Below, piece by piece: positions 11,408-64,000 of a stretch of 64,000 bases of DNA (its first letter is position 1; the number at the start of each line of letters is the position of its first letter). A program made the translations under genes and the position numbers. Origin of the DNA: Candidatus Marinacidobacterales bacterium (GTDB taxonomy: Bacteria; Acidobacteriota; Vicinamibacteria; Marinacidobacterales; SMYC01); the NCBI GenBank assembly GCA_965247365.1, contig CBDFHB010000002.1, positions 2,002,567-2,066,566 of the forward strand. Reading direction: 5' to 3'. The notes beneath the pieces were generated by a model. That model was not told the origin of the DNA, ran no database searches, and saw only the letters and a list, made by a program, of their open reading frames with translations.

Positions 11408-11409
11408 AA

Positions 11410-11877: not shown

Positions 11878-11947
11878 TGATGATCCTCCTCCGCCCTACA
11901 CACTAATTTCAAGGGGCGAAGTGTCTCAAGGATGTTGGCACAGAGGG

Positions 11948-22026: not shown

Positions 22027-22298
22027 TTACCTTGCGGCTAGGTCGCCATGCAGAACCCCGCAAGCTCTTCTTCAATCCTCTAGAAACGTACCCCCGCTAG
22101 GACCGACCACAGCCAGCCGGCGTCACTCTCGAGGATTGTCTGACCCATGAATTCCACGGTGAACTGTCGATTCAACTCGACACCGCCCATGATCTGAACC
22201 CCAGGGTCCTTGAACCATTCGCTTTCGGCCCTCTGTGCCAACATCCTTGAGACACTTCGCCCCTTGAAATTAGTGTGTAGGGCGGAGGAGGATCATCA

Positions 22299-22766: not shown

Positions 22767-22768
22767 TT

Positions 22769-23902: not shown

Positions 23903-24552
23903 ATGCAGCTCGCGAGTGTCTCAATGTTGTTGACATGTTCCGCGGACTCTCCAAATGCGCTGAGCTTCACATAGTTGGACAGGAGCCCGACACCACCGCC
24001 CACGTACGGGCGAATCTTTTCTTGCTCTGACTTCCATTTGACGTTTACGAAAACATTCGCCGGAACGGTTTTGAAATTGATGTCGCCTTCCGTTCTGCTA
24101 CGGTAGGCGCCTTGAAACTCCAACCCGATAAAGCCTTGGGGGCCGAATGCGCCCCAATCGCTTCCCACCGAGGCGAACCAGCGATCTGTAAATCCTCCAA
24201 GATCACTGTTCAAGTTGATGCCGAGCTTCAAGAAAGCATCCCCGGCCAGGAGAGCTGGCGGTGCAGACAGGAACGCGGCCGTCAAGATGATGGCGATTGT
24301 CCAGCGTGTCATTTTCTTGTCCCTTTCGTGCTCGACGAAGAGCGAGCTTCTAGCGATGCGAAACCGCCGAAAAGTGTCGGCCCTCACGCTTCTTCGTCTA
24401 AGGTAGTGTGCTGATAAAGAACATTGTCGCACAAATTTTTGAACCTGTCTCGTCAGTTGGTAGTGGTTTTAGTCTGATTAGACCACCCGTTTTTTCTCCT
24501 CGGCCGGGCCTTGATTTCCATAGATTTGACCCCCATCATTGAAATACAGGAA

Positions 24553-28167: not shown

Positions 28168-28237
28168 CCCTCTGTGCCAACATCCTTGAGACACTTCGCC
28201 CCTTGAAATTAGTGTGTAGGGCGGAGGAGGATCATCA

Positions 28238-28705
28238 ATGAGTTCATTGATTGAGAGAATGACCCCGGCGGGAACGGAAGGAGCCCGCAGGGCGACTGGA
28301 GATCCCGCCGGCCGCGATGCGGCGGGGGTCCCGGAAACGGAAGTGAGTGAGCAAGCGAAGCGTCGACGCTTTACCGCGGAGTACAAGCTGCGGCTAGTGC
28401 GCGAGGCCGACGCCTGCAAGGGTGTCGGGGATATTGCGGCACTTCTGCGTCGAGAGGGCCTGTACTCGTCGCAGCTATCGAGTTGGCGCCGCCAACGTGA
28501 CGAGATCGCGAAGGCGGGGTTGACGTCGAGAAAGCGAGGCCGGAAGGCGAAGGCAGAGGATCCACGGGTCAAGGAGCTCGAGCGCGAGAACGCCCGGCTC
28601 CAACGTCGCCTGGCTCGAGTGGAGACGATGTTGGAGATCCAAAAAAAAGCCTCCGAACTGCTGGGGATCCCCCTGAATCCGCTCGACAGCGACGAGAACG
28701 ACTGA
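28238..28705 (+). CDS. IS transposase OrfA (copy 3)
   Basis: Identical protein to the other copies. Confidence 0.75.
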   Translation: MSSLIERMTPAGTEGARRATGDPAGRDAAGVPETEVSEQAKRRRFTAEYKLRLVREADACKGVGDIAALLRREGLYSSQLSSWRRQRDEIAKAGLTSRKRGRKAKAEDPRVKELERENARLQRRLARVETMLEIQKKASELLGIPLNPLDSDEND

Positions 28706-28707
28706 TT

Positions 28708-29841
28708 GTGGCGGCCGAGGAGCTGGCGGGACAGATTGGGCAGACGGCGGAAGCCTGCGAGGCTCTGAGTGTGGCTCGTTCCACGTTGTATCGCAGGCGC
28801 CAGCTGGTGACGCCCAAACCGAAGCGTCGTCCTCGGCCGCACCGAGCCCTCGACGAGACCGAGTGCGAGAAGGTCCTCGGAGCCTTGCACTGTGAGCGTT
28901 TCGTCGACAAGGCGCCCGCGCAGGTGTGGGCCACGCTTCTGGACGAGGGAATCTACCTCTGCTCGATTCGCACGATGTATCGGATTTTGGAAAAGTACGG
29001 CGAGGTCCGAGAGCGCCGGAACCAACTGCGCCATCCGAATTACGCCAAGCCGGAGCTGTTGGCCGAGGCGCCCAACGAGGTTTGGTCGTGGGATATCACG
29101 AAGCTTCGTGGCCCCGTCAAGTGGACCTACTACTATCTCTACGTCATCCTCGACATCTTCTCCCGCTACGTGGTTGGCTGGATGCTGGCTCACCGAGAAA
29201 GCGCCGAGCTCGCGAAACGCCTCATCGCCGAGAGCTGTCGCAAGCAAAACATTGAACCAGACCAGCTCACCATGCACGCGGATCGTGGCAGCTCGATGCG
29301 AAGCAAGTCCGTGGCTTTGCTCTTGGCAGACCTCGGCGTGACCAAGACCCACTCCAGACCCTACGTCTCGAACGACAATCCCTACTCCGAGTCTCAGTTC
29401 AAAACGCTCAAGTATTGCCCTCAGTTCCCCAGCCGTTTTGGTTCCATCCAAGACAGCCGGCTGTTCTGCCGCGGTTTCTTCGACTACTACAACAATGACC
29501 ACCGGCACTCGGGGGTCGGCCTTATGACACCGGCCGACGTTCACTACGGTCGCGCCGAACAACTCACCACCGCTCGGCGCCAGATCCTTCTCGAGGCTCA
29601 GCGTGCTCATCCCGAGCGCTTCGTTCGCGGAACGCCACAACCTCCCGTTTTGCCTCCTCAGGCCTGGATCAACCCGCCGCCGCAGAAAACGACGCTCCAG
29701 GATGCCGCAGGAGCCATTCTCTCGGCGTCGTCCATACCTGGGGTACCCCCTTTTTCTGCTTCACCCAACGAGATCGCGAGCGAAGCAGACGTCGACCACG
29801 CGGACATCACCAGTCGCCGAAAGTTAATCGAGGCTCACTAA
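28708..29841 (+). CDS. IS transposase OrfB, DDE/rve (copy 3)
   Basis: Identical protein to the other copies. Confidence 0.8.
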   Translation: MAAEELAGQIGQTAEACEALSVARSTLYRRRQLVTPKPKRRPRPHRALDETECEKVLGALHCERFVDKAPAQVWATLLDEGIYLCSIRTMYRILEKYGEVRERRNQLRHPNYAKPELLAEAPNEVWSWDITKLRGPVKWTYYYLYVILDIFSRYVVGWMLAHRESAELAKRLIAESCRKQNIEPDQLTMHADRGSSMRSKSVALLLADLGVTKTHSRPYVSNDNPYSESQFKTLKYCPQFPSRFGSIQDSRLFCRGFFDYYNNDHRHSGVGLMTPADVHYGRAEQLTTARRQILLEAQRAHPERFVRGTPQPPVLPPQAWINPPPQKTTLQDAAGAILSASSIPGVPPFSASPNEIASEADVDHADITSRRKLIEAH

Positions 29842-29882
29842 ATGCAGCTCGCGAGTGTCTCAATGTTGTTGACATGTTCCGC

Positions 29883-50616: not shown

Positions 50617-52017
50617 ATGCTCCGTAGAGACGCTTCGGCCCTGGGGTTGGTCCTGCTCGTCTACGGGCTCGTCTTGTCGTGCTCCTTCCTCGAGGCGGAT
50701 GAGGACCTGTGGGGCCGCATGGCGATGGGCCGTCTCATCGTCTCTGGGAGAGAGATTCCTCGCCAGGACGTCTTCGCTTACGTTCCGACGAAGCCCCTCT
50801 GGATCGATCACGAGTGGCTTGCGGGCCTCGTCTTCTTCGGGGTCTACGAACATCTGGGCGGCGGGGGTCTCGTCCTGCTTCGATCGCTTCTCGGTCTCGC
50901 TGCCTTGGGCTTCGCCTACGCGGCGGGACGCCTCGTGGGTGGGGCGCCTCTCGCGGTGGGGGGAGTCGCGCTCGCGGTGTCGCCACTCCTGCTCCAGGGG
51001 TTCAACACGGTCATTCGCGCCCAGGCCTTCTCCTTCGTGTTTTTCGCACTGTTTCTCGCCGTGCTCGAGAGCGGGAAAGGACGCTTGCTCGCGCTGCTCG
51101 TCGTTGCGAGCGCGCTCTGGGGGAATCTGCACGGCGGAGTCGTGACCGGAGTTCTCCTTCTGTCCGTTTACATGGTCCGCGATAGGAGGCTCGTCATCGT
51201 TCTACCACTCGGTCTGCTCGCGACCCTCGTAAATCCCTACGGGCTCGCCTATTGGAGCTATTTGGCGGAGGCTCTCACCATGCCCCGGCCCGAGATCGTC
51301 GAATGGCGTTCGGTGAATCTCTCGGGTCTCGAGGACCTTCACCTGAAGCTCGTGACGGGTCTCGTCGTCCTCGTCGCCGGTTTCGGGCGCTCGGTGGACC
51401 TTCGTCGACTCCTCGTCCTCGGGGGCACGCTGGCCGCGAGCCTGCTCCACGTTCGCTTCGCCCCCTTTCTCGCCATCGCCTGTATCGTCCTTATTCCTGG
51501 CCCCCTTCGCGCGGCTTTCGAGTGGGGTGCTCGGCACCTCCCGCAACGTTTCCTGCCCAGCCTCGTGCCGCTCACGGCCATGTTGTCGCTCCAGGCACTC
51601 TGTTTGCTCGGGTTTGCCGCCTCCTGGCAGAGGAGGGATCGCCCACTGACGATGGCGATTAGAGAGACTCGCTATCCCGTCCTTGCGGTCGAAGAGCTCG
51701 CTCGCCTGGGAGCGAGCGGCCGTTTGGCCGTGTTCTTCAATTGGGGCGAGTTTGCCCTCTATCACCTCTATCCTCGCCTCCGGGTCTCGATAGATGGACG
51801 CTACGAGACCGTCTATACGGATGATGTGGCGCGAGCGAATTGGGACTTTACCTTCGGGCGAGAGGGCGCCGCGCGGCTTCTCGACCTCTACGGCGCCGAC
51901 TTCGCCCTCTATCCCGGAGACAGCGGTGCTGCTCGCTGGCTGGCCCGCGAGCCATCCTGGGAGCTTGTTTCCGCGGACGACCTCGCGGCGCTCTACCAGC
52001 GACTCCCTACCCGTTGA
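50617..52017 (+). CDS. Large polytopic membrane protein with a C-terminal soluble domain (possible GT-C-type glycosyltransferase or polymerase)
   Basis: About 10 predicted TM helices, then a ~150-aa hydrophilic tail. No diagnostic motif recognised. Confidence 0.5.
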   Translation: MLRRDASALGLVLLVYGLVLSCSFLEADEDLWGRMAMGRLIVSGREIPRQDVFAYVPTKPLWIDHEWLAGLVFFGVYEHLGGGGLVLLRSLLGLAALGFAYAAGRLVGGAPLAVGGVALAVSPLLLQGFNTVIRAQAFSFVFFALFLAVLESGKGRLLALLVVASALWGNLHGGVVTGVLLLSVYMVRDRRLVIVLPLGLLATLVNPYGLAYWSYLAEALTMPRPEIVEWRSVNLSGLEDLHLKLVTGLVVLVAGFGRSVDLRRLLVLGGTLAASLLHVRFAPFLAIACIVLIPGPLRAAFEWGARHLPQRFLPSLVPLTAMLSLQALCLLGFAASWQRRDRPLTMAIRETRYPVLAVEELARLGASGRLAVFFNWGEFALYHLYPRLRVSIDGRYETVYTDDVARANWDFTFGREGAARLLDLYGADFALYPGDSGAARWLAREPSWELVSADDLAALYQRLPTR

Positions 52018-53190: not shown

Positions 53191-54134
53191 ACGCTGGGAC
53201 GGAGACTCGATGGCCTGCGCGGTTTCGCGACGAGTCGGGACAGACGACGTTTTTCGTCCTCTGCAGCTTCTTCACATTCTTCATGTTCTTCGCTCTCGTG
53301 GCGAACGTGGGCCAGGCGGTGAACCGCCGCGTGCTGCTCCAGATGGTGGCGGATACAGGAGCCTTTTCCGGAGCTTCGGCCCAGGCCTCCGCCATGAACA
53401 CGATCTCGGAGTTCAATCAGATCATCGATACCTCTTGGGACGTAACCCAGGGGCTCATGCTGTACTTCACCTTCCAGTTCTGCGGCGTGGACGACGCGAT
53501 CACGGGCATCTATCGCGTGATCGAAACCGTCATGTCGGTCATGATTCGCGTAACGAACCACGGCGGCGCGGTCTGGGCGATCATGGAAGCGGAAATGGTC
53601 ACGCGCCAGAACATCAGCCATCTGTTTCGCGATGGGTCGGTGCACACGCCGCTGCAGTCGATTCCCTCGTTGCTCTCGAGCCCCGGCTCGGCGGCGATGG
53701 GTGGCTCCCACGTCGCCAATTTGCTCGAGGCTTGGCCGGCCCTCACGAGCCTCTCGCTCGTGCGACTGGAACAGGACTCGGTTACGAAGAACTGGATTTG
53801 CTATACGCCGCCGTACAGTCTGAGCTCCAAATCGGGCTCGTTCAACCTTCCATGGGAGAAATCCGACGACGATGAGGTGACCCGCTTTTATTGGTGGGTC
53901 ACGGCCGACCCGGTGGATGCGCTCGTCCTGGCGAAACGACCCTGGTTTCCCTTCGGTTTTCCTCAAGTGCCGGAAATGCACGCGGTCGCTCTTGCCAAAC
54001 CGGTAGGGGGTGAGATCGAACCGGACGGCCGAGGCGACGAGTACGTCGCGAAGATGATCCCGCTGTCCATCATCGACGCGACGTTTCTCAACCTTGGCGG
54101 CGACTTGCCGAGCCTGACGGAGGTCCTGCATTGA
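53187..54134 (+). CDS. TadG/Tad-like pilus-assembly protein
   Basis: ESGQTTFFVLCSFFTFFMFFALVANVGQAVNRRVLLQMVAD resembles the Tad N-terminal motif (pfam13400-like). ATG overlaps the upstream stop. Confidence 0.55.
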   Translation: MNAGTETRWPARFRDESGQTTFFVLCSFFTFFMFFALVANVGQAVNRRVLLQMVADTGAFSGASAQASAMNTISEFNQIIDTSWDVTQGLMLYFTFQFCGVDDAITGIYRVIETVMSVMIRVTNHGGAVWAIMEAEMVTRQNISHLFRDGSVHTPLQSIPSLLSSPGSAAMGGSHVANLLEAWPALTSLSLVRLEQDSVTKNWICYTPPYSLSSKSGSFNLPWEKSDDDEVTRFYWWVTADPVDALVLAKRPWFPFGFPQVPEMHAVALAKPVGGEIEPDGRGDEYVAKMIPLSIIDATFLNLGGDLPSLTEVLH

Positions 54135-54910
54135 GATTCCCGAAGGGCGAAGGCGGACAGGCGTTCATCGAGACGCTCCTGATGATTTGGCTTCTCACGC
54201 TCTTGCTCTCGGCCATCATTCAAGTTTTTCTCATCCACAATTACACATTCCAAATGGCGAACAACGCCTACTACAGCCTGTTCAAGGACAAGGCCTACGG
54301 GGAGTACAACACGCCCAGCAAGGCGTTCTCGGGCTTTCCCAACTGGACGCCGACGAGGAAGCCTCTCCGCACGGTCAAGGCCTTGCAGCAGGCGGGGGGA
54401 AAGGTTCACGTGATCGCGGGCCACGACGTCAATTGGAGTGAAGACGATCGGGCGGCGGTCCCGATGATGCCGTTCTACGAAGAGCCCATCAAGGAGCAGC
54501 TCCAGAACTTCGGTGTCACTCGCGCTCCCGTGCGACTCAAGATTGGCAACCCCTCAGACGGCCAGAACTATCTAGAAATGAAGTTTCTCCACATGTCGAT
54601 GGGGACGGAAGGCGGGTTTGCGGCCTTCTTCGAGATGATCGGATCGATCATTTCAATCTCGGGAGAGCTCGGCGAGAACTATACCGACTTCACTGGCGGC
54701 TATTCGGACGGCGACCTGGACGACATGTTCGGCGACTACGAGGGTGCCGACGACGATCTCGATAATCAGGATGGAGACAGCGGACAGAAGGCCAAGAATC
54801 AGTGGGACAACGAGCACGGTGACTTCAATCACGACGGCTACGGCGACGCCTGCGAGGCCCTCCAAGGCAATAACGATCCTGGCTGTCGTACCAATCGACC
54901 CTGGGAATAA
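54131..54910 (+). CDS. TadE-like pseudopilin with an acidic Asp/Gly-rich C-terminal tail
   Basis: GQAFIETLLMIWLLTLLLSAIIQV N-terminus. C-terminal DGDLDDMFGDYEGADDDLDNQDGDSG. Confidence 0.5.
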   Translation: MRFPKGEGGQAFIETLLMIWLLTLLLSAIIQVFLIHNYTFQMANNAYYSLFKDKAYGEYNTPSKAFSGFPNWTPTRKPLRTVKALQQAGGKVHVIAGHDVNWSEDDRAAVPMMPFYEEPIKEQLQNFGVTRAPVRLKIGNPSDGQNYLEMKFLHMSMGTEGGFAAFFEMIGSIISISGELGENYTDFTGGYSDGDLDDMFGDYEGADDDLDNQDGDSGQKAKNQWDNEHGDFNHDGYGDACEALQGNNDPGCRTNRPWE

Positions 54911-54919
54911 GGAGCGTTC

Positions 54920-55741
54920 ATGAAGGGCAAGCCTGCCATCATCATCTCGATATTGTTCGGCATTCTGGCTTGGGTGTTCGTCTGGCTCTATTTGACGACT
55001 CGCGAGGCGGAGCTGCTTCAGATTGCCGACTCGCGACCGGTCGTCGTGGCGGCGACGGACATTCTTCCGGGAACGGCCATCGAAGAGAACATGATTGCGG
55101 AGACGCAAGTGCCCCTGAAATTCCTTCAGCCGAGCGCCTTTGGTTCGATTCGGGATGCCGTGGGGCAGGTTCCCGCCGTGCCCATTCAGGAAGGCAGCCA
55201 GCTTGTGGGGACGTCGATGACGGGCGTCGGCCGCTCTCTCTCAACCAAAATTCCGAGAGGCCAGCGCGCGGTCTCGATCGCGATAACCGACGTCACCGGT
55301 GTGGCGAGCTTGATCCGCCCGAGCAACTACGTCGATATCCTGGCAACTTTGAAGCTCGGAAGCGGTCTCGGTTCCTCCGACCAGCGAACGATAGTCGCGA
55401 CGCTGTTTCAAAACGTGCTCGTGCTCGCGGTCGGCAGCGATACGGGCGAGATCGCGCAGCGGGCCGAGGCCGATGGCGACACCCTCGCGGCGCTTTCGGG
55501 GCAGAACCGGGATCAGCGTTTCAGCACCGTGACGGTCGCACTTACGCCGAAACAGGTCCAGGACCTCGTCCTGGCGCAGGAAGTGGGCGACCTTTCCTTT
55601 TCGCTCCGCTCCTTCCGCGAGGGGGAGGCACCGCTCGACATACCTCGCTCGAATCCGAGCGGCTCATTCGGGATCGCCGACACCGAGCTCGTCCCGCGCC
55701 GGGCTCCCTCGTGGCAAGAGATTCGCGGGAACGTTCGTTGA
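54920..55741 (+). CDS. cpaB: Flp pilus assembly protein CpaB/RcpC (SAF domain)
   Basis: N-terminal TM helix, then a SAF-like region (VVVAATDILPGTAIEENMI). Confidence 0.7.
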   Translation: MKGKPAIIISILFGILAWVFVWLYLTTREAELLQIADSRPVVVAATDILPGTAIEENMIAETQVPLKFLQPSAFGSIRDAVGQVPAVPIQEGSQLVGTSMTGVGRSLSTKIPRGQRAVSIAITDVTGVASLIRPSNYVDILATLKLGSGLGSSDQRTIVATLFQNVLVLAVGSDTGEIAQRAEADGDTLAALSGQNRDQRFSTVTVALTPKQVQDLVLAQEVGDLSFSLRSFREGEAPLDIPRSNPSGSFGIADTELVPRRAPSWQEIRGNVR

Positions 55742-55761
55742 ACAATTCAAGGAGAGCGACG

Positions 55762-57051
55762 ATGACAAGGACGATGTTCCGAAGCAGTCTTCCCGCCTTG
55801 GGCCTCGGTCTGCTATGGGCCTCGCTGGGCCTCGCACAGCAACCCCAACCTGCGGCGGAAGTGGTGACGGTAGGCGGGCAGACGTTGATTCGTGTGGACT
55901 TCTCGATTGGGCGCACGGCTCTCGGCAACGACAACGTGGCGGACTTTCGCGTACTCGACAGCCGTCGGGAAGTGCTCGTTCTCGGCCGCACCCCGGGAGA
56001 GACGACACTGACACTCTGGGATCAAGACGGTAACCTGCGGCGTGAGATCACCCTCCGCGTGCGTCCCTCCTCCGGTACGGCCAAGCAGATCATCGACGAG
56101 CTCGAGCAGCTCATCGGCGGCATCGAGGGTATCGAGTATCGGGAGGTGGGTGGCACCGTCTGGCTGGAAGGTGAGGTGCTCACCGAGCGGGACATGGCTC
56201 GCATCGAGCGCGTGCTCGAAAGCTACCCCGAGGTCCGGAGCCTGGTGGAGCTCTCGCCCATGACTCAGGTGATGATGGACCGGGCCGAGGCCGACTCCAT
56301 CAAGACCGTCCAATTGGACGTTACGATCATGGAAGTCGACAAGAGCTTGATGAGGAATCTGGGCGTTCGCTGGTCGAGCTCCATCTCGCTGAGCTCCAGT
56401 CTGCCGTTCGAGGGGGGCAGCGGTGGCAGCTTCGGCCCGATAACCGGCGTCATCGACAATCTCCTTCCGAGCATCGACATGCTGACGAGCTCCGGCCAGG
56501 CGCGGGTGCTCGCTCGACCGACCCTCATCACCAGGAGCGGACAGAAGGCGGAGCTTTTCGTGGGAGGCGAGATCCCCATTCCCGTCGCCCAGGGCAGCGG
56601 GGCGGTGAGCGTCGAGTACAAGGAGTACGGAGTCAAGCTCGAGTTCGAGCCGCACGTGGACACACAAGACAATATCGATACGACGATCTTCGTCGAAATG
56701 AGCAATCTGGGAGGCCCCTCTCCCGGTGGCAACGCGCCCGGGCTCATCACCAATCGGGTGATGACCAACGTCTTTGTCAAGCAGGGGCAGAGCATCACCC
56801 TCGGCGGACTCGTGAAGTCAGAGGACGCAGAGAACGTCGACAAGGTCCCGGGACTCGGCAGTATTCCCGTACTCGGGAACCTCTTCAAGTCGAAGGGCTA
56901 CATGCGGAACCAGACCGAGATGGTCATTTTCGCGACGCCGACCATCGTCTCCGCCGACGAAGCGGGGCGGGAATTGCGCGAGTACGTCACCGCCGAGTTC
57001 GAGGAATTCGAGGAGATCGACACCCACAAGGTGAAGAAAAAAAAGCCGTGA
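55762..57051 (+). CDS. cpaC: Flp pilus secretin CpaC/RcpA
   Basis: RBS AAGGAGAG. Signal peptide. Secretin core ...ARPTLITRSGQKAELFVGGEIPIP...VPGLGSIPVLGNLFKS. Confidence 0.8.
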   Translation: MTRTMFRSSLPALGLGLLWASLGLAQQPQPAAEVVTVGGQTLIRVDFSIGRTALGNDNVADFRVLDSRREVLVLGRTPGETTLTLWDQDGNLRREITLRVRPSSGTAKQIIDELEQLIGGIEGIEYREVGGTVWLEGEVLTERDMARIERVLESYPEVRSLVELSPMTQVMMDRAEADSIKTVQLDVTIMEVDKSLMRNLGVRWSSSISLSSSLPFEGGSGGSFGPITGVIDNLLPSIDMLTSSGQARVLARPTLITRSGQKAELFVGGEIPIPVAQGSGAVSVEYKEYGVKLEFEPHVDTQDNIDTTIFVEMSNLGGPSPGGNAPGLITNRVMTNVFVKQGQSITLGGLVKSEDAENVDKVPGLGSIPVLGNLFKSKGYMRNQTEMVIFATPTIVSADEAGRELREYVTAEFEEFEEIDTHKVKKKKP

Positions 57052-57064
57052 GGTATCGGGGCTG

Positions 57065-59197
57065 ATGGCAGGCAAGGCGATTAGCGTCTTCTCCGTCAAA
57101 GGGGGAGGGGGCGCGAGCCTGCTCGCCGCGAACCTCGCGGTATCGCTCAAACGGGAGACCCGAGGGACGGTCGCTCTCGTCGACTTGGCTCACCCGGTTC
57201 CGGGAACGGTCGCGCTCTATTTGGGCCTTTCCGATCCGAAGGCAGTGGCGGATGTCGTGTCGCTTTTGGATCGACTTCAGCCGGCGCTTCTGAAGGGCTA
57301 TCTCACGACCCACTCGTCGGGGGTCACCGTCGTGCCGGCGGCCAACGACGCGCTCCAGGAAAAGGTGCTCTCTCGCGACAAGCTAGAGCGTTTCGTCGAG
57401 CTGCTTCTGCGCGCCTACGACTACGTGGTCGTCGATCTCGGGTCCATCGTTTCCGCCGATTCGATACCGATCCTGGATCTGAGCGCTGCCGTTTGCGTCG
57501 TGGTGACGCCGGAGGTGGCCTCGGTGACCCAGGCGCGGCGCGCGATCGAGTATCTCCAGTCCTACCACTTCTCCCGCGACATGATGCGCCTCGTGCTCAA
57601 TCGTTACGGGACGCGCATGGCCTTTCCGCCGGAGACCATCGAGGAGAGCACCGGTCTTGCGATCGCCCTCTACTTGCCGGAGGACGTCGACTTGGTGGAG
57701 CAGTCCATCTCGGATGCCGAGCCCTTCGTTTCGAGCTCGCCCCGGCATCCGGTGAGCAAAGCCCTCGATGGCTTCACGCAGCAGCTCGTCGCGGACTTCG
57801 GTCAGGGTGGCCTCGATTTCATGGGCAGCGCACGGCGGGCCCGAGGCGAGGCCGGTCGTCGATCCGGCCTTCCTACCGAGCCCGAGGTTCTGGCTCCTCC
57901 GGACGAGCGGGACGAGATCCGGGATATCAAGATTCGCATTCACCGTCGCTTGATCGACGAGATCGATTTCAAGAAAGCCGACCTCGAGCTGGCCAAGGAT
58001 CCGAAGAAGAAGTCGAAGCTTCGTGGCAAGACCGAAGTCAAGATCGTCAGCCTGCTGGACGAGGAGGCAAAGGGACTCTCGGACCGTACGGTCAGGAAGC
58101 AGCTGGTAAAGGAGATTCTCGACGAGGCGCTCGGCCTCGGCCCACTGGAGGAGCTCCTGCGCGATCCGGACGTCAGCGAGATCATGGTCAACGGAATCGA
58201 TCAGGTCTACATGGAGCGCGGCGGGAAGATCGTCCTCACCGACCACAGGTTTCTGACCGAGGATCAGCTTCGAGCCATCATCGAGCGCATCGTGGCGCCA
58301 CTGGGGCGTCGCATCGACGAGAAGTCACCGATGGTGGACGCGCGCCTCGAGGACGGCTCGCGCGTCAATGCCATCATCCGTCCGCTCGCCATCGACGGTC
58401 CCAGCGTGACGATACGCAAGTTCTCCAAGACGCCGCTAACCGTCGCGGACCTGATTCGCTTTGGCGCCTTTACGCCTCAGATGGCTCAGTTTTTCGAGGC
58501 TTCTGTTCTCGCGCGCCAGAACGTCGTGATCTCCGGGGGCACCGGCTCGGGAAAGACGACGTTTCTGAACGTATTGTCTTCATTCATCCCCGCCGACGAG
58601 CGGATCGTGACGATCGAGGACTCCGCTGAGCTTCAGCTTCCACAAGAGCACGTCGTGCGCCTCGAGTCGCGCCCTCCCAATATCGAGGGTGAGGGGGCGG
58701 TGACGATCCGCGATCTCGTGCGAAACTCCCTCCGGATGCGGCCCGATCGCATCGTCGTGGGCGAGTGTCGCGCCGGAGAAGCGCTCGACATGCTTCAGGC
58801 GATGAACACGGGCCACGACGGGTCTCTGACGACCGTGCACGCGAATACGCCGCGGGACGCCCTGTCTCGTCTGGAGACGATGAGCTTGATGGCAGGGCTC
58901 GACTTGCCATCGCGCGCGATTCGCGAGCAGATAGGCTCGGCGGTCGACCTCGTGTTTCAGCAAACTCGGCTCTCCGACGGAAGCCGGCGCGTCACTCACG
59001 TGTCGGAGGTGACAGGACGGGAAGGGGACGTCTTCACGATGGCCGACATTTTCCTCTTCAAGCAGACGGGTTTGACGCCGGAGAACAAGGTGCTCGGGCA
59101 GTTCGTACCGACGGGGATGATTCCGAAGTTCATCGAAACTCTACAGCGTCGCGGTATCAAGGTGCCGCGTGAGATCTTCCTTCACCAGACGGCGTGA
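57065..59197 (+). CDS. cpaE-cpaF: Single 710-aa ORF combining TadZ/CpaE-like (ParA/MinD-type, aa 1-~260) and TadA/CpaF secretion ATPase (aa ~285-710)
   Basis: N-terminus [18 protein letters not shown] (deviant Walker A), ...DYVVVDLG. C-terminus [19 protein letters not shown]...[14 protein letters not shown] (Walker A)...[33 protein letters not shown]. About 30-aa R/G-rich junction. Confidence 0.7.
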
Positions 59198-59203
59198 GGT
59201 AGC

Positions 59204-60062
59204 GATGTCGGCGATTCTGAAACTCGTCGTTCCCATCATGGTGGCGGCCGCCGCGGCCTTCATCACCTGGAGCATTCTGCAACCGCTCTCGGAGTGGTGG
59301 GACCGCTACTTGACGAAGTGGAGCCGTTGGATGCAGCTCGAGCTCGAGGCGATGCATCGGGAAGTGCCGCGCCACCGTTGTCGTCAGATCCTCGCCTATA
59401 CCGTTCTCTTTATGGCGGTGCTCGGGTTTCTCGTCAATTACAGCCCGTTCTTGGCGCTCGTTTTCGCCGGGCTAGGGCTCCTCGTCCCGCGGTGGGGCAT
59501 CGGATTTCTGAGGAGCCGCCGGCTCGCGAGGCTCAACGCTCAGCTCGGAGAAGCGCTCACCCTAGTCTCTAACTCTCTGCGCTCCGGGCTTAGCCTCCAA
59601 CAGGGCGTCGAGCTGGTCGTGGAAGAAATGGAAGCACCGATCTCGGAGGAGTTCGCGACGGTCGTGAAGGAGACGAAGCTCGGATTGCCGCTCGACGACG
59701 CGCTCCAGAACCTCGCCGATCGTGTTCCGACGCCGGATCTGGATATGGTGGTGACCGCCATCATCACGATTCGGGAGACGGGCGCGAATCTCGCCGAGGT
59801 TTTCGACGTCATCGCCCATACGGTGCGCGAGAGGAAGAAAGTCGAAGGCAAGGTCCAGGCGATGACTGCCGAGGGGATGACGCAGGGTGTGATGATGTGC
59901 GGCGTTCCGCCGGTGTTGATCGTTACGTTCTTCTTCCTAGACCCGACGCTCGTCGAGCCCCTGTTCAACTCCATTCTCGGAATCCTGATGCTGATGATCA
60001 TCGCGGGGATGGACGCGATGGGTATGTGGATGATCCTCAAAGTGGTGAAAATCGATGTCTGA
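59204..60062 (+). CDS. tadB: TadB (T2SS-F family inner-membrane platform protein)
   Basis: T2SSF-domain pattern (LSNSLRSGLSLQQGVELVVEE...) with three to four TM helices. Confidence 0.7.
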
Positions 60063-60285
60063 GGCGGGCACCGAGCGGGTCCGGGAGGCGGGCGCCGTTC
60101 TCGTCGAGTACGTCATGCTGCTCGGCTTCGTCACCGCACTGGTCCTTTTTCTCATGAAGCTCCTCTATCCGAATGCGAATACGAACTTCGAGACCCTCAT
60201 CAACCAGTGGGGCGACAAGATCGCGACCGAGATCGCGGGAGACAAGATCTCGGAAGACAACGAGGACGCCTGGGGCATGGACTGA
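60055..60285 (+). CDS. Flp-like small pilin-type protein sitting between tadB and tadC
   Basis: EAGAVLVEYVMLLGFVTALVLFLM, a G/AxxxEY-like motif plus a hydrophobic helix. 76 aa. Confidence 0.45.
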   Translation: MSEAGTERVREAGAVLVEYVMLLGFVTALVLFLMKLLYPNANTNFETLINQWGDKIATEIAGDKISEDNEDAWGMD

Positions 60286-60293
60286 ACGACGTC

Positions 60294-61187
60294 ATGCAAC
60301 TATCGACTCTACTTTTGTTTCTGGCATACGGGACGATTTTCCTCTCGGCGACCATGATGGTCTACCTCTTGTTGCCGGACTTTCGCGCCCGCGCCGCGAT
60401 GGCGCGCCTCGGAGCGGCCGAGGGGAAGGACCCGCTCGAATCGCCTCTTCTCCAGATCATGCACCCGTTGCTCCGGGCGATAGCGCCTTTCGTGTCTCAC
60501 TACGAGCTCTCGAGCTATCGGGCGTCGAAGGAGAAGCAGATCTCGGCCGCGGGGATGCGGGATGGGCTTTCGACGGACGAGTTTCTCGCCTGGAAGATCG
60601 CCTTCGCCGTCATCGGGCCGCTCGTGATGTCGGTGATCTTCCAGTTCGCCCGTCACCCGATCATGATCGCCCTCCTGGCCATCGTTTTCTCCTTTCTTCC
60701 GGACTTCCTTCTGCGGGACATGGTGACCAAACGTCAGCGAGCGATTGTGAGGGCGCTTCCGTTCTCCGTGGATCTTCTGACGCTCGTCGTCGAAGCGGGG
60801 CTCGATTTTTCGCAGGGACTGCAACGGGTTGTCGAGCGCGGCCCCCAGGGACCGCTCAGCGACGAGCTCTCGTTGATGATGAGGGAGATTCGGTTGGGAA
60901 CGACACGCTCGGCGGCTTTGCGAAGTCTCGCGGATCGATGCGGTGTCCCCGAAGTCTCCAGTTTCACCGCGGTTCTGATCCAGGCGGACCGTCTCGGCGC
61001 ATCGATCGGCTCCGTACTCCGATCTCAGGCAGATGTCATGCGCACCGAGAGATTCCAACGCGCGGAAAAGGCGGGCGCTCGCGCCTCGAGTCTCATGTTG
61101 ATGCCCCTGGTCATCTTCATTCTGCCAGCGGCGCTACTCGTCATCGTAGGTCCGGTGCTGCTCCGCTTCATCTACGGAATCGGCTAG
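60294..61187 (+). CDS. tadC: TadC (T2SS-F family)
   Basis: T2SSF domain (VDLLTLVVEAGLDFSQGLQRV...) with TM helices. Confidence 0.7.
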   Translation: MQLSTLLLFLAYGTIFLSATMMVYLLLPDFRARAAMARLGAAEGKDPLESPLLQIMHPLLRAIAPFVSHYELSSYRASKEKQISAAGMRDGLSTDEFLAWKIAFAVIGPLVMSVIFQFARHPIMIALLAIVFSFLPDFLLRDMVTKRQRAIVRALPFSVDLLTLVVEAGLDFSQGLQRVVERGPQGPLSDELSLMMREIRLGTTRSAALRSLADRCGVPEVSSFTAVLIQADRLGASIGSVLRSQADVMRTERFQRAEKAGARASSLMLMPLVIFILPAALLVIVGPVLLRFIYGIG

Positions 61188-61200
61188 CAAAGAAAAACCC

Positions 61201-63051
61201 TTGAAACGACTCATCATCAAACACGGCGAGCGAGTCATTCGACACGAGCTTTCCGACCAGTCCGTGACCATCGGACGGGACCCGAGTTGCGACCTCTTTT
61301 TCAGCGACTCCCGACTCTCACGGCGGCATGCCCTCATCGAGCCCGGGGAGGGGGGAATGCGTTTCATCGATTTGGGAAGCCGCAACGGGAGCTTCGTCGA
61401 GTCGAAGAGGGTCGAGGAGTACAAATTGGTGCCGGGGTCCGAAGTCCGCTTCGGAGGTCTCCTACTGTCCTATGAGGATGACTCGCCACCGCCACCGCCC
61501 GCAGTGGAGCCGGACGACACGGCGACGATCCTATTGACTGCGCCTCCGAAACCATCCCCGGATGACTCGGCGACGATCATGCTGAAAGCGACTCCCGGGT
61601 CGCTGCCGCTCCAGACGCCCGAAGAGCCCGATGCGCCCGAAAAAGACGACGCGACGGTCATGCTTCCGGCACAGCTCGGCAAGCCGGCAACGGTCGCCGA
61701 GGCTGCACAAGACGACAAGACGATGATGCTCGTGCCGAAGCCCGAGACCAAGACGCCCGATGATACGGGAACGCTGTTGATGAAGCCGGAAGCCCCGGCT
61801 GCCGCCAGGGGCTCGTCGGACACGAGGATTCTCACGCCGCAAGATTTCGCGCCGCCGTCTCCGGAACGGCTACCAGCCGAGCCGCCACCGATCCCCGACG
61901 AGGACGTGGATGGCGGCGCCGCGGGATGGACGAGCTCTCTATCGTGGTCTGCGAAGTTTCTCCTGATCACCTCGAGCCTTGCGCTGCTCGTCTACTTCAT
62001 GTTGGCGATGCCCCTGGTGAGGACTCTGGGCAACGCCCTTCGGGAGGAGTCGCTTCGCCGCGGGCGCGTCATTCTCGAGCTCTTGACGGAAGCGAACGGA
62101 AGCATCGTCGGAGAGGGACGCTTGCGCGACCTCACTGTCGAGGGAGTGTTGCGTGAGGAGCGGGTAAAGGAAGCCATCTTGATCGACTTGGAGGGGAACG
62201 TACTGGCCCCCTCGAATCGGACCGACGAAGTTCTCGACTCGATCGAGGGCATCGGAGCGCCCATTGACGACATCCGTACGTTTTATCTCGGACGCCGCGG
62301 ATCCGATTACGTCCTCGTACAACCCCTCCTGCACCGGAGCCGACGTGTTGGAGTTGCGGTCGTCGTCTACGAAGTGGCGACCGCTTCGGCGAGTTGGGCG
62401 ACGGCGGTATTGTCTCTCGCGTTCGTCGTTCTGCTTCTCGGAATCGCCACGGCGCTCGTGGTGGGCCGGCGCATGACCCTCGAGCCACTTTCGAGCCTTC
62501 GGGACGACGTCGAAGCGATCGTCAAAGGCGACGCGGATTATCTGCCGGCACGGCAGGCCTTCACCGAGCTCTCGGAGGTGGCGAGGAGCGTCAATCGGCT
62601 CGTGGCACGCTCGTTCGAGCTCGCCGCTCAGCGGCCGGCTACCGCACCGCCTTCGAGACCGTCGCCTACCAAGTCGAGGTCTCGGGAGCCCTCGGTGCAG
62701 CCCATCGCCGGCGCTCCTGCCTCCGTATCCGGGGATCGAGTCGCTTCCGAGTCGATTCCGGATGCTCGTCAGCAAGCGGGGTCGGCCGAAGGCGCGCGGT
62801 TCTGGGTCGACGAGAATTTCGTCGTGATCCGTGCCGAAGACGAGGCCGCGGGGCTGGTCGGTGCGTCGGCTTCCGCGATGGAGGGTAGCCACCTGATCGA
62901 AGCGGTCGCGGACCAGAAGCTTCTAGAGGTCATTCTCGATGCCATCAATGCGCTCGGAGACGCCGCCACGGCGGACGCCGAGACCGAGCACGTGAAGGTC
63001 ACGGCGGCGAGGGAGCAGGATGCGATCGTTGTCGGGCTGCGGAAGCTGTGA
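61201..63051 (+). CDS. FHA-domain membrane protein with five DDxT(I/V/M)(M/L)L repeat modules and a periplasmic/HAMP-like C-terminal region
   Basis: FHA motif SVTIGRDPSCDLFFSDSRLSRRHALIE...FIDLGSRNGSFV. Repeats DDTATILL, DDSATIML, DDATVML, DDKTMML, DDTGTLLM. TM helix LLITSSLALLVYFMLAMPLV. A second TM helix lies near aa 400. Confidence 0.65.
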   Translation: MKRLIIKHGERVIRHELSDQSVTIGRDPSCDLFFSDSRLSRRHALIEPGEGGMRFIDLGSRNGSFVESKRVEEYKLVPGSEVRFGGLLLSYEDDSPPPPPAVEPDDTATILLTAPPKPSPDDSATIMLKATPGSLPLQTPEEPDAPEKDDATVMLPAQLGKPATVAEAAQDDKTMMLVPKPETKTPDDTGTLLMKPEAPAAARGSSDTRILTPQDFAPPSPERLPAEPPPIPDEDVDGGAAGWTSSLSWSAKFLLITSSLALLVYFMLAMPLVRTLGNALREESLRRGRVILELLTEANGSIVGEGRLRDLTVEGVLREERVKEAILIDLEGNVLAPSNRTDEVLDSIEGIGAPIDDIRTFYLGRRGSDYVLVQPLLHRSRRVGVAVVVYEVATASASWATAVLSLAFVVLLLGIATALVVGRRMTLEPLSSLRDDVEAIVKGDADYLPARQAFTELSEVARSVNRLVARSFELAAQRPATAPPSRPSPTKSRSREPSVQPIAGAPASVSGDRVASESIPDARQQAGSAEGARFWVDENFVVIRAEDEAAGLVGASASAMEGSHLIEAVADQKLLEVILDAINALGDAATADAETEHVKVTAAREQDAIVVGLRKL

Positions 63052-63121: not shown

Positions 63122-64000
63122 ATGAAGCCCAAGACGAAGGACAGGACAGTTCGGGCGTTGGATGTACCGCGGCTCGTGGTGCAGCTTCCCGACGGCAAGG
63201 AAATCCACCATCACGTAGTCGGAAGCGAGCTCACGATCGGTCGGGACGCGACGAACCGCATCTCAATTCCCGATCACTTCGTGAGCAAGTTTCACGCCAA
63301 GCTTCTCGTCTCCCAAACGAGCATGACGCTAGTGGATCTCGAAAGCGCCAACAAGACCTATGTGAATGGACGCCAGATCCAGGAGTCCCCCGTGCGTTTC
63401 GGGGACGAGCTACGCTTCGCGGGCGTGACCTGCCGTCTCGATGCCCCGGCGATCCAAGAGAAGAAACCAGCTGAAGCCGCGGCGGTCACGCCCTCTCCGC
63501 CGCCTGCCGCCAAAGGGCCGCCGCCTGCCGCCAAGGTGCCGCCCGTTTCGCCGAGGCCACAACGGCAGCCGTCGGCCCCAAAGCCCAAGACCCCCGTAGC
63601 CGCGGGGCAGGCCCGCTCGACTCCGCCCAAAGTGGAAGCCGATCCCATGCGACGCTTGTTCGTTGTCGGAGGGCTCCTGATCGCGATATCCCTCGTGCTC
63701 GCGATCTTCTTGCGGATTTTGCTCGTTCCTTCCGAGACGACGGAGGAGGGGGGCGGAGAGTCGAGCACGAGCGCATCGGCACCGGTGGTGAGCCCGCCGT
63801 CTGCGCCCATCGCTCGTGAAGCCCCCGTGCCTGCGCCGGCGACAACCTCCTCAGTCGCGTCCGTTCAGAGCGCGGATGGGCGGGACGGCGAGTTCTACTT
63901 CGACGAGGCGCTCGCTCATCTCGACACCGGACGCCTCAAGGAGGCGCAAAGGAGCTTCGAGAGGGTACTGGAGCTCGACCCCGATCACGCGCGCGCGCGT
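63122..64000 (+). CDS. Second FHA-domain membrane protein (3'-partial, runs off the window end) with a P/A-rich linker, TM helix and TPR-like C-terminus
   Basis: Not in the supplied ORF track (no stop before the window end). ELTIGRDATNRISIPDHFVSKFHAKLL...LVDLESANKTYVNG is FHA. TM helix LFVVGGLLIAISLVLAIFL. C-terminus ...EAQRSFERVLELDPDHA (TPR). Confidence 0.6.
   Translation, partial: MKPKTKDRTVRALDVPRLVVQLPDGKEIHHHVVGSELTIGRDATNRISIPDHFVSKFHAKLLVSQTSMTLVDLESANKTYVNGRQIQESPVRFGDELRFAGVTCRLDAPAIQEKKPAEAAAVTPSPPPAAKGPPPAAKVPPVSPRPQRQPSAPKPKTPVAAGQARSTPPKVEADPMRRLFVVGGLLIAISLVLAIFLRILLVPSETTEEGGGESSTSASAPVVSPPSAPIAREAPVPAPATTSSVASVQSADGRDGEFYFDEALAHLDTGRLKEAQRSFERVLELDPDHARAR

Follow-up and report, generated by a model that had tools for sequence, protein, structure and literature searches.

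Gene content of the locus

The window, meaning the whole 64,000-nucleotide stretch of DNA analyzed here, has as its closest genome a "Candidatus Marinacidobacterales" MAG (92% identity). Toward its end, Tad machinery is followed on the same strand by two genes coding for FHA proteins, the first of which carries an array of threonine motifs and is called here the motif protein (Table 1). All the components that define a Tad/Flp locus were found in one cluster, namely, a secretin, a CpaF/TadA ATPase, TadB, TadC, and a Flp pilin, with a TadA-family match (TIGR03819; E value of 2.4e-100) below the cutoff of that model. An earlier sequence-only reading had set the motif protein beside a pilus machine, and this placement agrees with the upstream Tad genes, whose order is common to the related loci L003, L004, L008, and L009; Flp_Fap and RcpC were found in L003 and L004.

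The gene that follows codes for an FHA-TM-TPR protein with orthologs in L003, L004, and L008 to L011. A second FHA gene lies directly 3' of the motif-protein gene in every locus examined, and in the Tad-linked clade two FHA proteins follow, first FHA-TPR and then FHA-FHA-TPR, with three FHA domains between them. The FHA domain of the partner is 55 to 58% identical between Tad-linked and kinase-linked contexts, compared with just 29 to 37% for the motif protein between the Tad-linked and paralogous clades. These data support the view of the motif protein and the adjacent FHA protein as partners.

TABLE 1 Features of the Tad operon and the motif-protein gene, with positions counted from the first nucleotide of the window
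Feature	Coordinates	Strand	Residues and properties	Evidence
Truncated kinase fragment	6026-6550	-		
Tad machinery, upstream and in the same orientation	54970..61187	+		Pfam
Secretin	54970-57051	+	693 aa with T2SS-T3SS_pil_N domain	Pfam Secretin
ParA/TadZ-like-CpaF fusion ATPase	57065-59197	+	N terminus ParA/MinD-like	Pfam T2SSE
TadB	59169-60062	+		Pfam T2SSF
Flp-like ORF	60055-60285	+	76 aa	
TadC	60207-61187	+		Pfam T2SSF
Motif-protein gene (whole)	61201..63051	+	FHA, predicted disordered Thr-motif linker, TM1, periplasmic sensor, TM2, HAMP-like segment, second disordered linker, PAS-like CTD	
FHA domain	61201..61479	+	aa 1-93	Pfam PF00498, invariant columns, AF2, Foldseek
Cytoplasmic linker	61480..61941	+	aa 94-247; Pro/Ala/Asp rich, bears the motif array	AF2 disorder, composition
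Motif 1, DDTATILL	61513..61536	+	aa 105, Thr109; lineage-specific extra copy	
Motif 2, DDSATIML	61561..61584	+	aa 121, Thr125; Thr in 47/48 homologs, +3 L/V/F	
Motif 3, DDATVML	61645..61665	+	aa 149, Thr152; Thr in 50/50, +3 Leu in 46/50	
Motif 4, DDKTMML	61711..61731	+	aa 171, Thr174; lineage-specific extra copy	
Motif 5, DDTGTLLM	61759..61782	+	aa 187, Thr191; Thr in 48/48, +3 L/F/M/I	
Motif 6, SDTRIL	61816..61833	+	aa 206, Thr208; degenerate	
TM1	61951..62025	+	About aa 251-275	Alignment, AF2
Periplasmic alpha/beta sensor	62026..62385	+	About aa 276-395; PDC/Cache-like by shape	AF2 pLDDT 92-97
TM2 and HAMP-like helical segment	62386..62628	+	TM2 about aa 396-423; HAMP-like to about aa 476	AF2, homolog matches
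C-terminal PAS-like alpha/beta domain	62779..63048	+	aa 527-616; beyond the second disordered linker	AF2 pLDDT 93-97
FHA-TM-TPR partner gene	63122..64000	+	Runs past the window end	Pfam FHA (E 1.2e-14) and TPR

Domain architecture of the motif protein

The motif protein has 616 aa and a TTG start codon, in agreement with the N termini of homologs, which read MKRL(V/I)IK; we know of no description of its family. The bounds of the linker were set by alignment-based and HMM-based mapping. A conserved S-W stands before TM1 and a conserved P-L-V-R-T-L-G motif after it, and for the periplasmic sensor domain Foldseek ranks the WalK model 9a5d first. In the HAMP-like region, AF2 places helices at residues 396 to 441 and 455 to 476, which like the WalK match would fit a HAMP segment; a local Pfam scan of the protein gave no HAMP match, precomputed PF26769 HAMP_PhoQ matches on homologs are mostly faint or weak (the match on P0068 is unmarked), and NCBIfam showed weak similarity with chemoreceptors and kinases in their HAMP regions. 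Neither HisKA nor HATPase_c was found in the protein with Pfam and NCBIfam; it ends in a 90-aa PAS-like domain, which domain mapping of the extended family restricts to the Tad-linked clade. Beyond the FHA domain and the linker, the protein looks like a WalK-type sensor kinase reduced to its input half, with the kinase missing. The architecture beyond the FHA domain, the motifs, and a TM helix (periplasmic sensor, TM2, HAMP-like and PAS-like parts) was absent from the sequence-only reading.

The N-terminal FHA domain matches PF00498 over residues 22 to 85 (E value of 2.6e-17, 63.4 bits against a cutoff of 20.7), and the Pfam model Yop-YscD_cpl matches it as well. Its phosphate-binding residues G25, R26, S40, R41, H43, S60, and N62 (plus G63) are invariant in 50 aligned homologs, which share 37 to 83% identity; they correspond to the G-R of the beta3-4 loop, the S-x-x-H of beta4-5, and the S/T-x-N-G of beta6-7 by which FHA domains bind pThr. 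AF2 models the fold with a pLDDT above 94, consistent with an eleven-strand beta-sandwich, and the Foldseek neighbors include GarA, OdhI, and FhaA at TM scores of 0.8 to 0.9, with GarA/OdhI as the closest FHA structures (30 to 32% identity) and both FHA-1 and FHA-2 of Rv1747 also among the matches. Judged by residue conservation, this is a canonical FHA domain that should be competent to bind pThr. FHA domains recognize pThr, not pSer.

The threonine motif array

The five motifs described by the sequence-only reading lie where it had located them, all between the FHA domain and TM1. Their spacing, given there as an even 18 to 22 aa, is only roughly regular (16, 28, 22, and 16 aa from start to start), and a sixth, degenerate motif, SDTRIL, had been overlooked. 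In this last motif the Thr is invariant in the 50 homologs, Asp is found at -1 in 43 of them, and +3 is L, F, V, I, or M, while +1 and +2 are nonhydrophobic. The only family-wide threonines are Thr125, Thr152, Thr191, and Thr208, as Thr109 and Thr174 are lineage specific: motif 1 is a local DNA duplicate of motif 2 (79% identity over 38 nt), and the columns of motif 4 are filled in just 8 of the 50 aligned homologs. The consensus of the array is [DE]-[DE]-x(0-2)-T-[VIM]-[LVMI]-[LFV]. Most of residues 105 to 240 have an AF2 pLDDT below 50, so the linker is predicted to be disordered.

The earlier statement that the repeat is not a named domain holds, as neither the whole protein nor the linker alone gave a match for the repeat region in Pfam, NCBIfam, or the PDB sequences. 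The sole PDB sequence matches had E values of about 0.6 and are not meaningful, and an explanation by a known domain was dropped. We also considered an analogy with the TonB box, whose pattern is D-T-h-V-V-T-A, and rejected it because the array is on the cytoplasmic side of TM1 and adjoins the FHA domain.

A Pro/Asp/Thr-rich linker of biased composition, in which recent local duplication accounts for two of the five copies, might be suspected of generating such a repeat as a functionless compositional or low-complexity accident, an explanation to which we attach next to no probability. When the 158-aa linker was shuffled 100,000 times, at least four matches to DD.{0,2}T[ILVM]{3} were obtained in none of the shuffles (the maximum, three, was reached twice), and a looser motif gave at least three occurrences within 200 aa in a single one of 4,338 ORF segments from 74 unrelated FHA loci. 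The motif also recurs across 127 relatives, independent tandem expansions included. In the 50 homologs, conservation within the linker peaks at the four family-wide motif threonines, and these sites hold Thr in 195 of 196 cases and Ser in none; +3 is L, V, F, I, or M with 2 exceptions among the 196 (L, V, F, or I with a handful of exceptions), and acidic residues dominate -1 to -4. The motifs are under purifying selection within an otherwise fast-evolving linker. Shuffles, homolog conservation, the family scan, and the FHA-locus background refute the accident: the motifs are not due to chance.

Copy number across the family ranges from 0 to 11 and rises through tandem duplication, including independent expansions in relatives. 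About a third of the CTD-bearing relatives (32/96) have a short linker with zero motifs, and the array is therefore not essential to the core function of the family. A scan of the other operon proteins found no motif, the array being confined to this protein. Neither is it a general trait of FHA proteins, an option that we discarded as FHA-ABC, FHA-ExoP, and the other FHA matches (P0072 to P0083) lack it. Matching the number of motifs to the number of FHA domains was likewise given up: the kinase-linked clade has two FHA domains but 4 to 11 motifs, and motif number (0 to 11) showed no correspondence with the FHA domains per locus.

Kinase and phosphatase linkage

In the paralogous clade, which carries up to 8 to 11 motifs, the motif protein of L005, L012, and L089 belongs to a conserved cluster, apparently an operon, that also codes for a PP2C phosphatase and a Hanks kinase; L013 retains the Hanks kinase. 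Searches of the 64-kb window by regular expression and by tblastn with a related kinase and a related PP2C found no intact kinase and no PP2C, although a truncated kinase fragment is present (Table 1). Neither a kinase nor a PP2C was found within 10 kb of the Tad-linked orthologs in L003, L004, L008, and L009.

Possible function of the array

We think it probable that the motifs form a multivalent array of candidate pThr sites read by FHA domains. Ligands of FHA domains are known to follow a pT+3 rule (PMC5549992), and the tail of Bdellovibrio DgcB (NLEK-pT-SIV) has a Glu at -2 and hydrophobic residues at +2/+3, a pattern common to the OdhI tail (PMC6733907); by sequence, the motif resembles these ligands, which have been validated structurally for the FHA domains closest in structure. 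It also resembles the site preference reported for PknA-dependent phosphorylation in Mycobacterium tuberculosis, with acidic residues at -1 and -3 to -6, Leu/Val at +3, and Lys/Arg at +4 (PMC7164672). All the sequence-level predictions that we examined for the pThr/FHA idea held. The proposal, already made in the sequence-only reading, is thus partly supported: threonine-only sites, a hydrophobic +3, upstream acids, predicted disorder, the FHA residues, and gene linkage speak for it, and phosphorylation, FHA binding, and the oligomerization suggested to follow from them keep the standing of predictions. Taken together, this looks like a familiar FHA phospho-signaling logic in an undescribed protein family.

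The choice of threonine speaks against a second, rather unlikely explanation, namely, that the motifs are phosphorylation-independent docking strands, in which D-x-T-h-h-h would be added as a beta-strand to a partner (for instance, the ATPases, a TPR protein of the cytoplasm, or one face of an FHA domain) with no need for a kinase, Thr being kept for strand capping or hydrogen bonding. Among 127 FHA+sensor proteins, 268 isolated acid-preceded hydrophobic triplets are preceded by Thr in 250 cases and by Ser in none, in linkers with 7.6% Thr and 7.2% Ser, and strand propensity alone hardly explains this retention of Thr. The strongly hydrophobic three-residue core of motifs 1 to 5 does suit a strand, but motif 6 keeps just the Thr, the acid at -1, and the hydrophobic +3, which points to the FHA pT-x-x-hydrophobic rule and not to a general hydrophobic strand. 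Tad operons without a kinase would agree with phosphate-free docking, as would the FHA domain of Myxococcus GltG, for which phospho-independent binding to six sites of GltI is predicted (PMC11761067) and which is the top NCBIfam similarity of both FHA proteins, far below threshold. On the other side, the residues by which FHA domains canonically hold the phosphate do not vary among the homologs, and the paralog is embedded in a PP2C/kinase cluster. The full-length AF2 model has no motif in contact with the FHA pocket, so phosphate-free docking is absent from it; for pThr docking the same outcome is uninformative, because no phosphate was modeled. Three hydrophobic residues after the Thr are more than FHA binding requires, however, which leaves room for another or an additional partner.

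A third explanation, somewhat less likely than docking strands, is that the threonines are kinase substrates whose phosphates no FHA domain reads, and that multisite phosphorylation would instead act on the disordered tail, changing its charge or compaction, and by this route alter the sensor/HAMP protein in its conformation or its accessibility to partners. The variable copy number (0 to 11) resembles a rheostat-like multisite phosphorylation. Kinases in general accept Ser as well, and yet Ser is never seen at these sites; moreover, practically all members combine the array with an FHA domain in one chain, and a second FHA protein is always adjacent. While the upstream acids and the Leu/Val at +3 fit the reported preference of Hanks kinases (PMC7164672), a hydrophobic +3 is also the classical determinant of FHA specificity (PMC5549992; PMC6733907).

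If the motifs are pThr docking sites, the gene product is probably an inner-membrane signaling adaptor of an acidobacterial Tad-type pilus operon. The motif threonines would be substrates of a Hanks-type Ser/Thr kinase whose gene lies elsewhere in the genome, a PP2C phosphatase would reset them, and each pThr would dock an FHA domain, whose specificity pocket would take up the hydrophobic +3. The candidate readers are the FHA domain of the protein itself and the three on the two downstream membrane-anchored FHA-TPR proteins. Next to the two ATPases and the TadB/TadC platform, array and four membrane-tethered readers would then form a cluster switched by phosphorylation, which could govern when or where the pilus machine assembles, and through the sensor/HAMP-like/PAS-like half this hub probably receives a signal from the envelope. 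A stronger form of the model, in which four to six pThr sites recruit four FHA domains (its own, one on FHA-TPR, and two on FHA-FHA-TPR) into a condensate-like cluster that licenses the two-ATPase Tad machine to assemble or fire, with copy number tuning the valency, is offered tentatively, and we are inclined to doubt it. Should this form be true, the SCD-FHA logic of Rv1747 and Chk2/Rad53 would have a bacterial counterpart applied to a pilus nanomachine, and the unexplained excess of FHA proteins around Tad-like (Kil-type) systems would gain a concrete role.

FHA and TPR proteins accumulate around Tad-like machines such as those of Myxococcus (Kil) and Bdellovibrio. For the ligand of their FHA domains the locus supplies an explicit candidate, a stereotyped, threonine-only, repeat-expandable array carried by the FHA protein that comes first in the module, and the paralogous system keeps the same protein pair beside a kinase and a phosphatase. 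A vague idea of pilus phospho-signaling can thereby be turned into directly testable peptides, point mutants, and domain pairs. The array is also a further bacterial case in which a disordered region carries short linear motifs in multivalent form, with a valency that evolves by tandem duplication. Even if the docking idea were wrong, it would still be a strongly conserved, unannotated linear motif needing explanation.

Comparison with known systems

One of the closest parallels is Rv1747, whose intrinsically disordered linker carries T152 and T210, has PknF as its kinase, and undergoes FHA-driven oligomerization and phase separation (PMC8339232). Both are membrane proteins with a cytoplasmic FHA domain, a disordered linker of about 100 to 150 aa, and several Thr acceptor sites, and for both an FHA:pThr self-association with clustering at the membrane may be considered, which for the window protein is a proposal only (PMC8339232). 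Rv1747 has two FHA domains flanking the linker and two dissimilar sites, in contrast with one FHA domain per chain and four to six stereotyped copies in the window protein, and its output is an ABC transporter instead of a sensor/HAMP/PAS module in a Tad operon without ABC domains. The cognate kinase in the operon, a trait of the Rv1747 type, is absent from the Tad-linked clade and present in the paralogous clade.

With GarA/OdhI and DgcB, the window protein shares a Thr in its own tail, an acid at -2, and hydrophobic residues at +2/+3 (LEK-pT-SIV in DgcB), a pattern repeated in DDK-T-MML and DDA-T-VML; in self-recognizing FHA proteins, the phosphorylated tail Thr binds the FHA pocket (PMC6733907). 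Those proteins have a single site N-terminal to the FHA domain and act as soluble intramolecular or dimer switches, whereas the window protein, a membrane sensor, has its repeated sites on the C-terminal side of the FHA domain. The single N-terminal ETTS site that precedes the FHA domain in GarA/OdhI is absent from the window protein, and its NCBIfam OdhI score (44.6 bits) stays well under the cutoff of 200.

The Kil system of Myxococcus and the Tad neighborhood of Bdellovibrio are Tad-type loci enriched in FHA/TPR proteins, for which a contact- or phospho-signaling cascade has been proposed (PMC8460266; bioRxiv 10.64898/2026.07.08.737194). The Kil ATPase is fused to an N-terminal FHA domain, unlike the ParA/TadZ-like fusion in the window, and the Kil secretin is short and lacks N0, unlike the 693-aa secretin with its T2SS-T3SS_pil_N domain. 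The portions of these two sources consulted make no mention of a Thr-motif array or an FHA-HAMP sensor.

GltG, from the Agl-Glt gliding machine of Myxococcus, is similar in being a membrane-anchored cytoplasmic FHA protein of an envelope-spanning machine. Its model NF033760 reaches an E value of about 4e-15 and 55.4 bits against a cutoff of 650, and the window protein is therefore not GltG. The GltI scaffold is predicted to offer several FHA sites (PMC11761067), and these are folded TPR surfaces with predicted phosphate-free binding, as opposed to disordered Thr motifs. We know of no predatory lifestyle for the source acidobacterium, unlike the hosts of the Kil and Bdellovibrio systems.

Last, the Fha protein of the T6SS binds the pThr of TssL or is itself phosphorylated (PMC3953482). 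NCBIfam scores were below the cutoffs for both TagH (TIGR03354, 33.5 against 120) and SctD (TIGR02500, 21.7 against 86), and these FHA components differ from the window protein in machine, architecture, and the repeated-site array; what T6SS Fha/TagH-PpkA-PppA and T3SS SctD/YscD have in common with it is an FHA domain that tethers or activates, or in the window protein may do so, an inner-membrane nanomachine of the secretion or pilus type.

Motif array and domain architecture

The motif gene follows directly on the Tad genes and codes for an FHA protein whose TTG start is backed by a consensus N-terminus, MKRL(V/I)IK, in 49 homologues. The only Pfam domain in this protein is the FHA domain (aa 22 to 85, E 2.6e-17), and Pfam and NCBIfam scans found neither HisKA nor HATPase_c in it. 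The sequence-only reading had proposed five tandem threonine motifs behind this domain as candidate phosphothreonine (pThr) sites for FHA domains. All five are present at exactly the positions given, and to these we add a sixth, degenerate copy (SDTRIL) that had not been listed. The spacing, described as even, is only roughly periodic, with start-to-start distances of 16, 28, 22, 16, and 19 aa. Motif 1 is a local DNA duplicate of motif 2 (79% identity over 38 nt). A chance origin of the array is excluded: when the 158-aa linker was shuffled 100,000 times, no shuffle had at least four matches to DD.{0,2}T[ILVM]{3}, and in 74 unrelated FHA-containing loci only 1 of 4,338 ORF segments had three loose matches within 200 aa.

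An AlphaFold2 model built from an alignment of 50 homologues (mean pLDDT, 75) places every motif in a predicted disordered segment, which is cytoplasmic by predicted topology. The best Foldseek match in the PDB was a WalK sensor-kinase model spanning the TM-sensor-TM-HAMP-PAS part. FHA matches rank after it, the closest being GarA and OdhI (30 to 32% identity, TM 0.8 to 0.9), followed by FhaA, Rv1747 FHA-1/2, and Bdellovibrio DgcB. We call the segment after TM2 HAMP-like because the label is based on precomputed PF26769 matches on homologues, mostly weak, and on predicted helices.

Features of the window, the motif protein, and related loci
Feature	Position	Strand	Remarks
Truncated Hanks kinase fragment	6026-6550	-	
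Sortilin/BNR-repeat protein	6689-9916	+	1,075 aa
IS3-type copy	10233-11947	-	1,715 bp
IS3-type copy	22229-23943	+	1,715 bp
IS3-type copy	28168-29882	+	1,715 bp
ORF in Tad cluster	50617-52017	+	466 aa
ORF in Tad cluster	54131-54910	+	259 aa
Secretin	54970-57051		upstream Tad set
ParA/TadZ-like-CpaF fusion ATPase	57065-59197	+	710 aa
TadB	59169-60062		upstream Tad set
Flp-like ORF	60055-60285	+	76 aa, between tadB and tadC
TadC	60207-61187		upstream Tad set
Motif gene	61201-63051	+	616 aa
FHA-TM-TPR gene	from 63122		directly after motif gene, runs off window
FHA sandwich	aa 1-93		AF2, confident, pLDDT above 94
Disordered segment	about aa 100-245		AF2, mostly pLDDT below 50
TM1	from aa 249		AF2, long helix
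Periplasmic alpha/beta domain	about aa 280-391		AF2, confident
TM2 and helical HAMP-like segment	aa 396-476		AF2
Second disordered stretch	aa 478-526		AF2
PAS-like alpha/beta domain	aa 532-615		AF2, confident
Motif 1 (Thr109)	aa 105		DDTATILL
Motif 2 (Thr125)	aa 121		DDSATIML; alignment column Thr 47/48; +3 L26, V19, F2
Motif 3 (Thr152)	aa 149		DDATVML; Thr 50/50; +3 L46, I3
Motif 4 (Thr174)	aa 171		DDKTMML
Motif 5 (Thr191)	aa 187		DDTGTLLM; Thr 48/48; +3 L23, F21, M3, I1
Motif 6 (Thr208)	aa 206		SDTRIL, degenerate; Thr 50/50; +3 L32, F11, V3, I3, M1
Expanded arrays (up to 8-11 copies)	P0118 aa 1-324; P0106 aa 92-339; P0092 aa 92-374		
Operon continuation in orthologous loci	L003 10879-17932; L004 11773-17836		also L008, L009
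Paralogue cluster	L005 997-14744; L089 463-14980		

Conservation and threonine specificity

A word-indexed search gave 71 family members, the only taxon-named one being from Acidobacteriota, and a scan of GTDB species genomes gave six loci, all Acidobacteriota, the best of them in a "Candidatus Marinacidobacterales" MAG (92% identity). In the 50-sequence alignment the linker is highly variable and gap-rich except for four standout positions that are under selection: Thr152 and Thr208 are invariant, and Thr125 and Thr191 are kept in at least 94% of the sequences. Ser does not occur at any of the four, and Asp and Glu predominate at -1 to -4. Thr109 and Thr174 are extra copies confined to lineages.

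An exhaustive profile search retrieved 772 proteins (E <= 1e-30), and mapping of HMMs for the FHA, sensor, and C-terminal domains on all retrieved sequences identified FHA, linker, and sensor together in 127 proteins, which contain 0 to 11 motifs. Motif and spacer are expanded in tandem in some of these proteins, for example as units of 24 to 26 aa in P0106 and P0118 and as eight copies in P0092; these expansions are independent, and array valency evolves rapidly through duplication. Within the 127 linkers, where Thr (7.6%) and Ser (7.2%) are equally common, isolated acid-preceded hydrophobic triplets follow Thr in 250 of 268 cases and Ser in none. Acid-preceded hydrophobic runs of at least four residues number only seven in these linkers, so Thr is not merely one beta-branched or hydrophobic option.

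This specificity bears on the main alternative, that the motifs are docking strands bound without phosphorylation. For GltG, binding of the FHA domain to several sites on GltI without phosphate has been predicted (PMC11761067), and the top NCBIfam match is to GltG as well, far below threshold, but docking would hardly explain the strict requirement for Thr or motif 6, which retains nothing but Thr, Asp at -1, and a hydrophobic +3, with mostly Ala/Arg at +1 and +2.

The repeat matched no Pfam model, NCBIfam model, or PDB sequence, in line with the sequence-only reading, which did not recognize it as a named domain. The array was not found in the other FHA architectures retrieved during the searches, nor is the motif present in the other operon proteins.

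Tad operon context

The linkage to the Tad genes is kept in five orthologous loci with the same gene order: L003 (82% identity), L004 (44%), L008, L009, and L011. According to these loci, the operon continues beyond the window with the FHA-TM-TPR gene, an FHA-FHA-TM-TPR gene, a second T2SSE ATPase whose N-terminal domain is MshEN (a c-di-GMP-binding type of domain), and a large TPR protein, so that we are dealing with a two-ATPase Tad system in which a single motif array is accompanied by four FHA domains, all cytoplasmic and membrane-tethered. P0106, a less closely related protein that has the C-terminal domain, contains six copies of DGDATILL, with TadC and two FHA proteins on its flanks.

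In the Tad ATPase, an N-terminal ParA/MinD (TadZ/CpaE-like) domain is fused to CpaF/TadA, usually encoded by separate genes; the fusion is kept in L003, L004, and L009. The system is not strictly of the Kil type, as the ATPase is TadZ-fused and not FHA-fused. The 76-aa ORF overlaps the tadC start and codes for a hydrophobic helix along with a processing motif, G/AVLVEY, that resembles the one of Flp pilins; the ORF has no Pfam match, and counterparts of 71 to 76 aa are kept in L003 and L004. Two other ORFs inside the Tad cluster (466 and 259 aa) have no Pfam match either, the latter with an equal-sized counterpart in L004 (2923-3702).

Paralogous clade and kinases

A second clade, without the C-terminal domain and with 29 to 37% identity to the window protein, is not Tad linked. 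Its cluster, conserved in L005, L012, and L089, codes for a RodZ-like protein, DnaJ/TPR, PP2C phosphatase, Hanks kinase (PEGA-fused in L089), TPR, PEGA/PDZ/TPR, the motif protein, a small FHA protein, YqeY, LdcA, and Mpl. L013 has a matching arrangement including the kinase, with no PP2C match within the stretch fetched, and the shorter contigs L006 and L007 have a matching core. The gene content suggests a module in which Ser/Thr phosphorylation is tied to peptidoglycan recycling and cell shape. Orthologous to the small FHA protein is the FHA domain in the gene downstream of the motif gene (55 to 58% identity), so the pair of motif-bearing FHA sensor and second FHA protein is conserved in two contexts, one of which includes a kinase and a phosphatase. 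That linkage is also hard to reconcile with phosphorylation-independent docking. A further possibility is multisite phosphorylation with phosphates that FHA domains do not read, but this would leave the constant FHA fusion, the FHA neighbor, and the exclusion of Ser unexplained.

No PP2C is encoded in the 64-kb window, and no kinase lies within 10 kb of the Tad-linked orthologues. The only kinase sequence in the window is the truncated Hanks fragment, spanning positions 77 to 151 of the 263 in the Pkinase profile, with HRDLKPPN and DFG, after which the sequence degenerates. The sequence-only reading named a genome without any Ser/Thr kinase as a refutation of its proposal; against that case stand MAGs assigned to the same candidate order (L012 and L013), which encode the PP2C/kinase cluster beside the paralogue.

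The fragment abuts a low-GC island (0.47 to 0.50 versus about 0.60) that carries the Sortilin/BNR-repeat protein, and it looks like a kinase gene broken by an acquired segment. The three IS3-type copies, with HTH_Tnp_1 and rve integrase ORFs, are 99.9 to 100% identical, which points to recent transposition in this genome region.

Proposed mechanism and relation to known systems

The conserved core, acid(s)-x-Thr-x-x-hydrophobic, lies in the predicted disordered cytoplasmic tail. FHA domains require pThr. Their ligand specificity is determined by the +3 residue (PMC5549992, PMC6733907); the DgcB tail reads LEK-pT-SIV, and the OdhI tail shares Glu at -2 and hydrophobic residues at +2/+3 (PMC6733907). 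A Hanks-kinase preference measured in M. tuberculosis is for sites with Leu/Val at +3, Lys/Arg at +4, and acidic residues at -1 and at -3 to -6 (PMC7164672). The motif core agrees with the general FHA ligand rule, with the DgcB and OdhI tails, which are bound by the FHA domains closest in structure, and with this kinase preference. FHA competence is seen in the pocket residues of the motif protein, which are invariant in the 50 sequences; by inspection, the G-R, S-x-x-H, and S-x-N motifs are also present in the other three FHA domains of the operon.

The best-supported model is a multivalent pThr array read by FHA domains. The motif threonines would be phosphorylated, the operon FHA domains would read them in cis or trans, and the resulting clustering beside the Tad platform, for which Rv1747 (PMC8339232) and the T6SS Fha-TssL interaction are analogues, could then affect the pilus. 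We consider the motifs almost certainly functional linear motifs and lean towards their being pThr/FHA sites, while oligomerization controlling the Tad machine is a tentative and rather doubtful outcome.

By analogy, the logic would be of the familiar kind, an FHA domain plus a phospho-acceptor tail, as in GarA/OdhI, DgcB, Rv1747, and Chk2/Rad53; the motif protein falls outside these families because it lacks their defining features. Full-text literature searches found no account of an FHA-HAMP family or of the Thr motif. What is new is the stereotyped, repeat-expandable array of Thr motifs, its host architecture, in which FHA is combined with a TM-sensor-HAMP-PAS module that has no kinase, and the constant pairing with another FHA protein both in Tad operons and in the PP2C/kinase cluster.
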